DNA of 40,009 nt from Escherichia coli (GTDB lineage: Bacteria > Pseudomonadota > Gammaproteobacteria > Enterobacterales > Enterobacteriaceae). The first letter of the stretch is position 1. Each line of letters opens with the position of its first letter. The position numbers and the translations under genes were made by a program. The stretch lies in assembly GCF_003334765.1 (NCBI RefSeq), contig NZ_QOWT01000036.1; one strand, 5' to 3'. The notes under the pieces are model-generated. The model was not told where the DNA came from. It worked only from the letters and a program-made list of their open reading frames with translations, and ran no database searches. This document shows positions 8,981-10,114 of this stretch, in pieces.

Positions 8981-10114
8981 ATGTCATCACTGAATATTAA
9001 ACAGGGAAGTGACGCTCATTTTCCCGATTATCCTCTGGCGTCGCCCAGTAATAATGAAATTGATTTACTTAATCTAATCTCAGTTTTATGGCGGGCCAAA
9101 AAAACGGTCATGGCGGTCGTTTTTGCGTTTGCCTGCGCAGGCTTGCTGATCTCTTTCATCCTGCCGCAAAAATGGACCAGCGCGGCGGTTGTCACGCCTC
9201 CAGAACCTGTTCAGTGGCAAGAGTTGGAGAAATCATTCACTAAGCTTCGTGTGCTGGATCTGGATATCAAAATTGATCGTACAGAAGCATTTAACCTGTT
9301 TATCAAGAAGTTTCAGTCGGTTAGCTTGCTGGAAGAGTACCTGCGTTCATCACCTTATGTGATGGACCAATTAAAAGAGGCGAAAATCGACGAACTGGAT
9401 TTGCATCGCGCAATTGTCGCATTGAGCGAAAAAATGAAAGCGGTTGATGACAATGCCAGTAAGAAAAAAGATGAACCGTCACTGTATACCTCCTGGACGC
9501 TAAGTTTTACCGCGCCAACCAGTGAAGAGGCGCAGACCGTTTTGAGCGGGTATATCGATTATATCTCTACGTTGGTGGTGAAAGAGTCGCTAGAAAACGT
9601 CCGTAATAAACTGGAGATCAAAACCCAGTTTGAAAAAGAAAAACTGGCTCAGGATCGCATTAAAACGAAAAATCAACTTGATGCAAACATTCAGCGCCTC
9701 AATTATTCACTCGACATTGCCAACGCGGCAGGAATTAAAAAGCCCGTTTACAGTAATGGTCAGGCCGTTAAAGATGACCCCGATTTTTCTATTTCTCTCG
9801 GTGCAGACGGTATTGAACGCAAACTGGAAATAGAAAAAGCGGTCACTGACGTTGCGGAACTGAACGGTGAATTACGTAATCGGCAGTATCTTGTCGAGCA
9901 ATTAACAAAAGCACATGTCAACGATGTGAATTTTACGCCGTTTAAATATCAGTTAAGCCCGTCATTGCCAGTGAAAAAAGACGGTCCGGGTAAGGCGATT
10001 ATTGTGATCCTTTCCGCGTTGATCGGCGGGATGGTGGCTTGTGGTGGCGTGCTGTTGCGCTATGCGATGGCATCCAGAAAACAGGATGCCATGATGGCAG
10101 ACCACTTAGTTTAA
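8981..10114 (+). CDS. fepE: FepE, Wzz-family polysaccharide co-polymerase (O-antigen chain-length regulator), 377 aa
   Basis: Translation matches FepE. Hydrophobic segments near both ends (VMAVVFAFACAGLLISFIL and AIIVILSALIGGMVACGGVLL) flank a long coiled-coil-rich periplasmic region, the Wzz topology. The gene looks more AT-rich than its neighbours (by eye). Confidence 0.92.
   Translation: MSSLNIKQGSDAHFPDYPLASPSNNEIDLLNLISVLWRAKKTVMAVVFAFACAGLLISFILPQKWTSAAVVTPPEPVQWQELEKSFTKLRVLDLDIKIDRTEAFNLFIKKFQSVSLLEEYLRSSPYVMDQLKEAKIDELDLHRAIVALSEKMKAVDDNASKKKDEPSLYTSWTLSFTAPTSEEAQTVLSGYIDYISTLVVKESLENVRNKLEIKTQFEKEKLAQDRIKTKNQLDANIQRLNYSLDIANAAGIKKPVYSNGQAVKDDPDFSISLGADGIERKLEIEKAVTDVAELNGELRNRQYLVEQLTKAHVNDVNFTPFKYQLSPSLPVKKDGPGKAIIVILSALIGGMVACGGVLLRYAMASRKQDAMMADHLV

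Follow-up and report, generated by a model that had tools for sequence, protein, structure and literature searches.

The enterobactin region of Escherichia coli carries, between entF and fepC, a gene whose historical name assigns it to ferric enterobactin transport, and this raises the question of what the gene really encodes, whether it is expressed along with its iron-regulated neighbours and how long it has been in this position. It was addressed here in a window of 40,009 nucleotides from an E. coli contig (NZ_QOWT01000036.1), in which a 1.5-kb query around fepE is 100% identical to K-12-lineage chromosomes, the region being the E. coli K-12-type enterobactin region. We hold it to be almost certain that the ORF is fepE, or wzz(fepE), which in E. 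coli is the second regulator of O-antigen chain length, and that it forms an old, AT-rich, insulated cassette with its own promoter which is idle in K-12. The identity, family, structure and very long O-antigen role of fepE are all already established and therefore nothing new is added here on its function; the sole item that is mildly new is a polymorphism in an RcsB box of its promoter.

The gene and its product

FepE had originally been predicted to have the topology of a Wzz-type polysaccharide co-polymerase, and all of this holds. The protein is 100% identical over 377 residues to full-length E. coli FepE as determined by cryo-EM (PDB 9SKI), and it scores 621.8 bits against the NCBIfam equivalog NF007699, "LPS O-antigen length regulator Wzz(fepE)", with residues 1-368 lying on positions 1-368 of the 368 in the profile, for which the curated cut-off is 300 bits and a full-length match is required. 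The Pfam Wzz domain (PF02706), by which membership of the PCP-1 class was judged, is matched at residues 25-122 (E = 1.9e-19). Scores against the equivalogs of other co-polymerases fall below their cut-offs, with 124 bits for WzzB (cut-off 267) and 89 bits for WzzE (cut-off 332), and the Wzc model NF007350 (cut-off 1248) gives 17.7 bits. The only 19-residue Kyte-Doolittle windows above 1.6 are those of TM1 and TM2, the two-helix arrangement of PCP-1 proteins, with which the full-length alignment to the membrane protein 9SKI agrees; a Pro/Gly-rich segment stands before TM2, and the GNVR profile match over residues 335-361 is weak (E = 0.0067). The chain ends 19 residues past TM2 and therefore has no tyrosine kinase domain, as is the case for PCP-1 as opposed to PCP-2a proteins. 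Taken together with 98% identity (370/377) to FepE of O157:H7, the family matches, the two-helix topology and the lack of a kinase domain identify FepE as a PCP-1 co-polymerase and not a transporter. Annotation as wzz(fepE) between entF and fepC is general, the query being matched in 5418/5426 complete E. coli genomes in RefSeq, and an Rfam search of 8400-10600 (E up to 1) gave no match. The features of the locus are collected in Table 1.

Table 1. Features of the fepE locus, with positions counted from the first nucleotide of the window
Feature	Position	Strand	Basis or remark
Intrinsic terminator of entF (fes-ybdZ-entF transcript)	8781..8823	+	scan, folding, covariation
Position orthologous to the EHEC O157:H7 H-NS footprint	8835..8847	+	alignment of K-12 with O157:H7; K-12 TTTGATGAATATT, O157 TTTGCTGGTTATT, 3 differences
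Putative degenerate RcsB box TCGGATAATTATCA	8903..8916	+	78 nt upstream of ATG; orthology to the Salmonella box; encloses most of the 8906-8917 motif
Extended -10 TGgTAAAGT of the fepE promoter	8922..8930	+	CTGnTAnnnT block conserved beside the box in all fepE-bearing taxa
Shine-Dalgarno-like TCAGGT, AGG 9 nt before ATG	8967..8972	+	conserved in nearly all aligned taxa; role presumed
fepE / wzz(fepE) CDS	8981..10114	+	377 codons, ATG start; ORF list, 9SKI identity, NF007699, PF02706, RefSeq annotation
Transmembrane helix 1 (residues ~43-61)	9107..9163	+	Kyte-Doolittle hydropathy
Transmembrane helix 2 (residues ~340-358)	9998..10054	+	Kyte-Doolittle hydropathy; Pro/Gly-rich SPSLPVKKDGPGK just before
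Overlap TTAA of the convergent stops of fepE (+) and fepC (-)	10111..10114		sequence; no intergenic terminator

FepE is accordingly an inner-membrane PCP-1 whose large helical periplasmic domain lies between two transmembrane helices. The very long mode (>80 repeat units) of the O-antigen made by Wzy is proposed to be set by the space inside its nonameric barrel, a role that lies outside both the chemistry and the transport of enterobactin. The published structure is a closed nonamer with a chamber volume ~3.6 times that of octameric WzzB, the ring of which opens to release the polymer, and chamber volume has been proposed as the setter of O-antigen chain length (PMC13161533). Identity to the 9SKI chain, reported as a closed nonamer (PMC13161533), predicts the same homo-oligomeric barrel for the protein encoded here. 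In O157 lowering or deleting fepE results in shorter O-antigen (PMC8669466), and very long O-antigen is presumably also the business of the present allele, a function carried over from that 98% identical protein.

Insulation from entF and the supposed Fur site

The original prediction gave fepE a terminator and a promoter region of its own upstream and suggested that it is separately regulated, and both proposals are upheld by what lies between entF and the start codon and by expression data from CFT073, ExPEC and EHEC, in which fepE is uncoupled from entF. The hairpin that follows entF has a 13-bp stem (8781-8793/8801-8813), a 7-nt loop, CAGAAAA, and a T-rich tail, TTTTTTATTTGTT, and folds at -13.4 kcal/mol. 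In 16 sequences from Escherichia, Citrobacter and Salmonella 96.6% of the cells of the stem are paired, with changes on both sides in 8/13 pairs; none of 500 shuffles matches this covariation, and slid registers pair only to 38-54%. We conclude that the hairpin is a real, conserved intrinsic terminator, where termination itself is read from the drop between a 294-fold and a 4.9-fold response to loss of Fur on its two sides, and that the so-called fes-ybdZ-entF-fepE operon is interrupted by it.

The motif gataattatcac (8906-8917) had been noted as a weak Fur-like half-site that did not convince, and that scepticism was justified. Against the 19-bp Fur consensus GATAATGATAATCATTATC the best register at the motif (8900-8918) scores 12/19, a chance level equalled at 74 positions of the window, as compared with 15-16/19 for the genuine Fur regions of the window at 12929, 15449 and 15564; the consensus scan found no credible Fur box anywhere in 8766-8980. 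In a delta-fur mutant of CFT073 expression goes up 388-fold for fes, 294-fold for entF and 4.9-fold for fepE; fes, which opens the fes-ybdZ-entF-fepE unit, has a listed Fur peak, and fepE has none (PMC7157518 supplement). In an ExPEC strain in iron-poor inactive serum fes, ybdZ and entF are induced but fepE is not, and fepE responds to complement instead (PMC4145685). Control by Fur through the 8906-8917 motif was thus rejected on the chance-level match and the placing of the CFT073 peak. From the weak match, the CFT073 data and the ExPEC data it follows that fepE is without a Fur box of its own and that Fur acts on it only by leaky read-through; since fepE does rise ~5-fold without Fur and is listed in databases as part of the operon, the insulation from entF is leaky and not absolute.

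At the other end of the gene E. albertii and one further Escherichia species have the same four-base overlap of stop codons with fepC. In Citrobacter and Salmonella fepE and fepC are separated by 30-54 bp containing a GC-rich hairpin, which in Salmonella has A and T runs on its two sides, in the manner of a bidirectional terminator. A hairpin on the minus strand within fepE (10099-10087) is a possible terminator of fepDGC, with 5 pairs only.

The probable promoter and its RcsB-type box

Intergenic DNA 3' of the terminator aligns poorly between genera save for a single block, TTTC-GGATAATTCTGA-n6-CTGnTAnnnT, which combines an RcsB box, defined as TN(G/A)GAN4TC(T/C)NA, with an extended -10. Of the 21 taxa that carry fepE, 19 have the consensus, placed between -72 and -84 relative to the ATG, and it has a single match elsewhere in the window. 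In Salmonella Typhimurium the box, TCGGATAATTCTGA, lies at -79 from the ATG and at -36 to -22 from the mapped transcription start, which is 36 nt past the box start; it is protected by phospho-RcsB, and binding is abolished by changing the central base of a half-site (PMC7913699). The K-12 box departs from the consensus at one base, A8913 (box position 11), which replaces the central C of the right TC(T/C) half-site. As this is the base at which mutation kills binding in Salmonella, and as the consensus is retained elsewhere, the K-12 site is best read as a degenerate orthologue. The supposed Fur half-site, most of which lies within the box, would therefore in reality be a degenerate RcsB box, in a position orthologous to that of the Salmonella fepE promoter.

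By analogy with Salmonella, transcription of K-12 fepE would start at ~8937-8939. A sigma-70 candidate returned by the promoter scan (TTTACA at 8887, a 16-nt spacer and AATTAT ending at 8914) was rejected, its hexamers being conserved within Escherichia only; the box with TGnTAnnnT was preferred, being conserved from genus to genus and consistent with the start site in Salmonella. In EHEC a fusion of the fepE promoter to gfp is active, and H-NS binds, footprints and represses this intergenic DNA (PMC8669466). The exact footprint sequence is absent from K-12, which has only the orthologue with 3 mismatches, and matches of that kind are no commoner than chance in the window. The scheme that emerges is one of a cassette of ~1.35 kb, made up of terminator, promoter and gene, set in the convergent entF-fepC junction, in which the conserved terminator insulates fepE from the Fur-controlled fes-ybdZ-entF transcript and a weak extended -10 promoter of its own would drive it, governed in relatives by H-NS (EHEC) and RcsB (Salmonella).

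The state of the RcsB box varies within E. coli. Promoter haplotypes were counted with allele-specific 45-mer probes in 5426 complete genomes, and four haplotypes together account for 5399 of these. The K-12 type, with its non-consensus box, is found in 2390 genomes (~44%), and the consensus is met by the other three, namely the O157:H7 type (1661 genomes, box TCGGATAATTCTCA), the PEC403 type (831) and the ATCC 25922 type, which has a divergent intergenic region with a TAGAAT -10 (517). A8913 is taken to be derived because the consensus C is kept in all other Escherichia and, with the exception of one Citrobacter, in all other genera examined. No paper connecting RcsB with fepE in E. coli was found in the literature searched. 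It is a tentative suggestion, and one about which we are rather doubtful, that the C-to-A change may uncouple control of very long O-antigen from the Rcs envelope-stress system and so constitute a natural regulatory polymorphism in the length of a surface polysaccharide. As a modest lead, it could help to account for differences between strains in very long O-antigen expression, which bear on serum resistance and on the production of O-antigen vaccines.

Base composition

It had been proposed that fepE is more AT-rich than its neighbours, that this would be visible in GC and codon-usage comparisons and that it reflects separate acquisition or regulation. The first of these is plain, at GC 0.43-0.45 against 0.55-0.61. 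The gene has a GC of 0.450 and a GC3 of 0.479, compared with 0.54-0.61 and 0.54-0.67 for its ent/fep neighbours (entD excepted); the stretch 8766-10110, at 0.43, lies ~3.6 SD under windows of the same size over entD..entH (mean 0.548, sd 0.033) and is the minimum of the cluster, and the region upstream of fepE (8766-8980) falls to 0.32. The check on codon usage came out differently from that on GC. Atypical synonymous usage was sought in fepE and none was found, the synonymous G per codon of 0.160 being inside the range of the neighbours. When FepE is re-encoded with the codon preferences of its neighbours its GC is still 0.484, so that ~71% of the deficit comes from an amino-acid composition rich in Lys, Asn, Ile, Asp and Glu and 29% from synonymous choice. 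The GC of fepE is 10-15 points under that of its neighbours in every lineage that carries the gene. In fepE, AT-richness is a stable trait of long standing, for the most part dictated by what the protein is made of.

Distribution and age of the insertion

One genome per species was scanned with FepC, which gave 80 loci, 7 of them too short to assess. At the entF/fepC junction fepE is present in 25 of the 73 assessable loci (four Escherichia, both Salmonella, most Citrobacter, Pseudocitrobacter and three others). It is absent from 43, in which the stops lie 28-472 bp apart, and these comprise Klebsiella, Raoultella, nearly all Enterobacter, Kosakonia, Lelliottia, Leclercia, Kluyvera and four Citrobacter; GC-rich hairpins were found in the 15 fepE-less junctions that were folded. 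The remaining 5 hold other cargo, such as Rhs fragments, a MetX-like esterase with a chemoreceptor, or a chaperone-usher fimbrial operon. The junction takes fepE as an optional insert and in other genera holds other cargo.

Separate acquisition of the gene is therefore supported by its absence from the junction in 43 of the 73 assessable species, with the refinement that the event is ancient and not recent. Divergence at synonymous sites from Citrobacter and Salmonella is similar for fepE (dS 1.9-2.0) and the 3' end of entF (1.6-2.0), and since the site is shared across genera and dS is like that of the neighbours, the insertion must be old. The dN/dS of fepE is 0.07-0.18 overall and 0.15-0.18 within E. 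coli. The simplest reading is that fepE was inserted in an ancestor of Escherichia, Salmonella and Citrobacter and that purifying selection has maintained it since, although it was lost again in places and is occasionally exchanged. That exchange at the site does occur is shown by E. coli NCTC9967, whose ybdZ and fepG, like the part of fes that falls in the locus, are 100% K-12-like, but whose fepE is only 73% identical and has 91% identity to the copy in another Escherichia genome. In three loci (L064, L066 and L081) the copies of fepE are only 56-60% identical, which suggests repeated transfer by flanking homology as opposed to one gain followed by losses.

Status in the K-12 lineage

In K-12 the FepE protein is intact and the gene would appear to be idle under laboratory conditions. 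W3110 is without O-antigen because wbbL is disrupted (PMC8129183). When wbbL is restored the O-antigen has ~25 units, as set by WzzB, and no very long mode, and the wzzfepE transcript was not detected in one rich medium, even with PmrA constitutively active (PMC8129183). As the gene is silent in K-12 and the O-antigen substrate is missing, deletion of fepE would show no change in LPS there and would be uninformative with regard to family assignment.

Alternative explanations

Two further readings would keep fepE within the iron system. It would seem very unlikely that fepE is no more than the terminal gene of a Fur- and CRP-controlled fes-ybdZ-entF-fepE operon, with no meaningful promoter of its own and with expression that tracks iron status, even though papers list that operon (an annotation of the RegulonDB type) and fepE is among the Fur-regulated genes of CFT073, where it is 4.9-fold up in delta-fur. 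A covarying terminator splits entF from fepE, derepression drops ~60-fold across it, serum iron limitation moves fes, ybdZ and entF and leaves the complement-responsive fepE where it was, no credible Fur box exists at 8766-8980, the EHEC intergenic DNA drives a reporter alone and a start has been mapped in Salmonella. That FepE should itself help to transport ferric enterobactin, which is what its old name and the titles of some PDB entries imply, is scarcely credible: its place inside the ent/fep cluster, the PDB entries that still say "ferric enterobactin transport protein FepE" and the speculation of one paper on coordination with iron transport have to be set against a sequence and fold that are those of Wzz co-polymerases, published phenotypes that concern O-antigen length and 43 species, Klebsiella and nearly all Enterobacter among them, in which the enterobactin cluster lacks nothing but fepE and entF abuts fepC.

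The remaining two concern the history of the gene. Its low GC, its patchy distribution in the Enterobacteriaceae and the K-12-like backbone of NCTC9967 with a 73% identical fepE might all be put down to recent horizontal acquisition by E. coli; we consider this highly improbable given that fepE occupies the same site in Escherichia, Salmonella and most Citrobacter, that dS is like that of neighbouring genes across genera, that almost every E. coli genome has the gene (5418/5426), that the gap in GC recurs in every lineage and that the deficit is mostly one of amino-acid composition (71%) with no outlying synonymous usage. It is less easy to dismiss, albeit still unlikely, that fepE of the K-12 lineage is a silenced relic without current function and heading for loss. 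W3110 has no transcript and makes no very long mode even after restoration of wbbL, the RcsB box is changed at a base needed for binding in Salmonella, and in one strain of the sample IS1 is inserted within the matched stretch, fepE included. Yet the ORF is intact and encodes a protein identical to that which forms nonamers, dN/dS within E. coli remains at 0.15-0.18, 2390 genomes, including many from strains other than laboratory ones, have this promoter allele, and silence is known from one rich medium only.

Comparison with known systems

Among the co-polymerases, WzzB (O-antigen long mode) and WzzE (ECA) are like FepE in having a Wzz domain, two helices and an oligomeric bell or barrel, the similarity being only distant. 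It is also like the PCP-2a tyrosine autokinases of the Wzc type in its N-terminal Wzz-like segment and in the weak GNVR match beside TM2, but it lacks their cytoplasmic kinase domain.

The closest system in another genus is Wzz(FepE) of Salmonella enterica, which produces very long O-antigen of >100 units and has 74% protein identity to the FepE described here. The two share their position between entF and fepC, the upstream hairpin and the layout of RcsB box and -10 (-79 compared with -78 here); Salmonella differs in that its RcsB box fits the consensus, its -10 is TAGAAT and a bidirectional terminator lies between fepE and fepC, and induction by PmrA is reported there, whereas in K-12 it was not seen. 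Closest of all are O157:H7 Wzz(FepE) (PDB 3B8M, 3B8N) and full-length E. coli FepE (PDB 9SKI-9SKL), with the same genomic position, terminator and promoter core as here. The O157:H7 promoter is set apart from that of K-12 by C in place of A at box position 11 (8913) and by the 3 K-12 differences in the stretch footprinted by H-NS.

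Variation in the fepE promoter

The conserved RcsB box in the promoter of fepE, the positional orthologue of a box mapped in the Salmonella fepE promoter, has a critical base that carries a derived C-to-A change, and when allele-specific probes were used to count haplotypes across 5426 complete E. coli genomes this change was found in 2390 of them. The consensus box is retained by the remaining three promoter haplotypes, namely the O157:H7 (1661 genomes), PEC403 (831) and ATCC 25922 (517) types.

In the last of these, which accounts for ~10% of the genomes, the entF-fepE intergenic region is quite unlike its usual form, with a length of 246 bp vs 215 bp and a stronger-looking -10, TGTTAGAAT, which the fepE -10 of Salmonella resembles. 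Together the divergent region and this -10 suggest, on sequence grounds, lineage-specific levels of fepE expression.

Features of the window and of comparison loci (L-numbers) from other genomes
Feature	Position	Remarks
entD	186-806	GC 0.475, GC3 0.454
Region matched in strain DAM	8700-10200	split by IS1A
RcsB box, fepE promoter	8903-8916	derived base at 8913
fepE/fepC stop codon overlap	10111-10114	TTAA, 4 bp
GC-rich hairpin	10130-10153	within extended fepC 3' end
ybdM-ybdN-citR-dsbG	25474-29300	GC 0.385-0.476
Exact RcsB-consensus match	28102-28115	within citR
fepE, E. coli NCTC9967	L003 (= L005) 4810-5949	73% DNA identity to K-12
entF-fepE intergenic region, ATCC 25922 lineage	L004 5769-6014	example
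FepE fragment, Citrobacter amalonaticus AUH_CA_2023_1	L027 8206-8649	residues 106-254
Cargo-bearing entF/fepC junctions	L058 7796-12480; L083 7793-11000; L056 7790-14789; L065 7790-10925; L039 9433-10572
Rhs core fragments		Kosakonia junction
MetX-like esterase and chemoreceptor		Kosakonia junction
Chaperone-usher fimbrial operon	L056 7790-14789	entF/fepC junction
Two unassigned ORFs		Pluralibacter junction

Alleles, possibly disrupted copies and base composition

The fepE of NCTC9967 is far from the K-12 copy, although its locus is identical to K-12 in ybdZ, fepG and the part of fes that it contains; identity to the window falls below 90% from about 8700 to 10200, and entF taken whole is 96% identical. 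As the NCTC9967 gene is 91% identical to the copy in another Escherichia genome (L009), a second deep allele class of fepE is in circulation within Escherichia.

An IS1A element splits the match in E. coli strain DAM, so the region containing fepE is occasionally disrupted by insertion. Only a fragment of FepE was matched in C. amalonaticus, where the gap at the fepE site is of a size that fits the whole gene, and either a frameshift that has made the gene a pseudogene or a fault in the assembly may account for this.

In base composition fepE does not stand alone within the window, since both entD and the ybdM-ybdN-citR-dsbG stretch are at least as AT-rich. Across the 40 kb the RcsB consensus, TN(G/A)GAN4TC(T/C)NA, is matched exactly at a single site, a palindrome inside the AT-rich citR gene that may be due to chance.

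Comparison with other genera

The entF/fepC junction is occupied by unrelated cargo in other genera, and in Pseudocitrobacter a gene for a WaaB-type LPS 1,6-galactosyltransferase (498 bits; cut-off 385) adjoins fepE. At the 3' junction, fepE and fepC of Escherichia have overlapping stop codons, and the FepC of this genus exceeds that of other genera by 6-8 residues. Salmonella and Citrobacter, in contrast to the overlapping stops of Escherichia, have kept a fepE-fepC spacer of 30-54 bp with a GC-rich hairpin; in Salmonella a run of A and a run of T border this hairpin, an arrangement typical of bidirectional terminators. The GC-rich hairpin within the extended fepC 3' end of Escherichia may be a relic of such a terminator.
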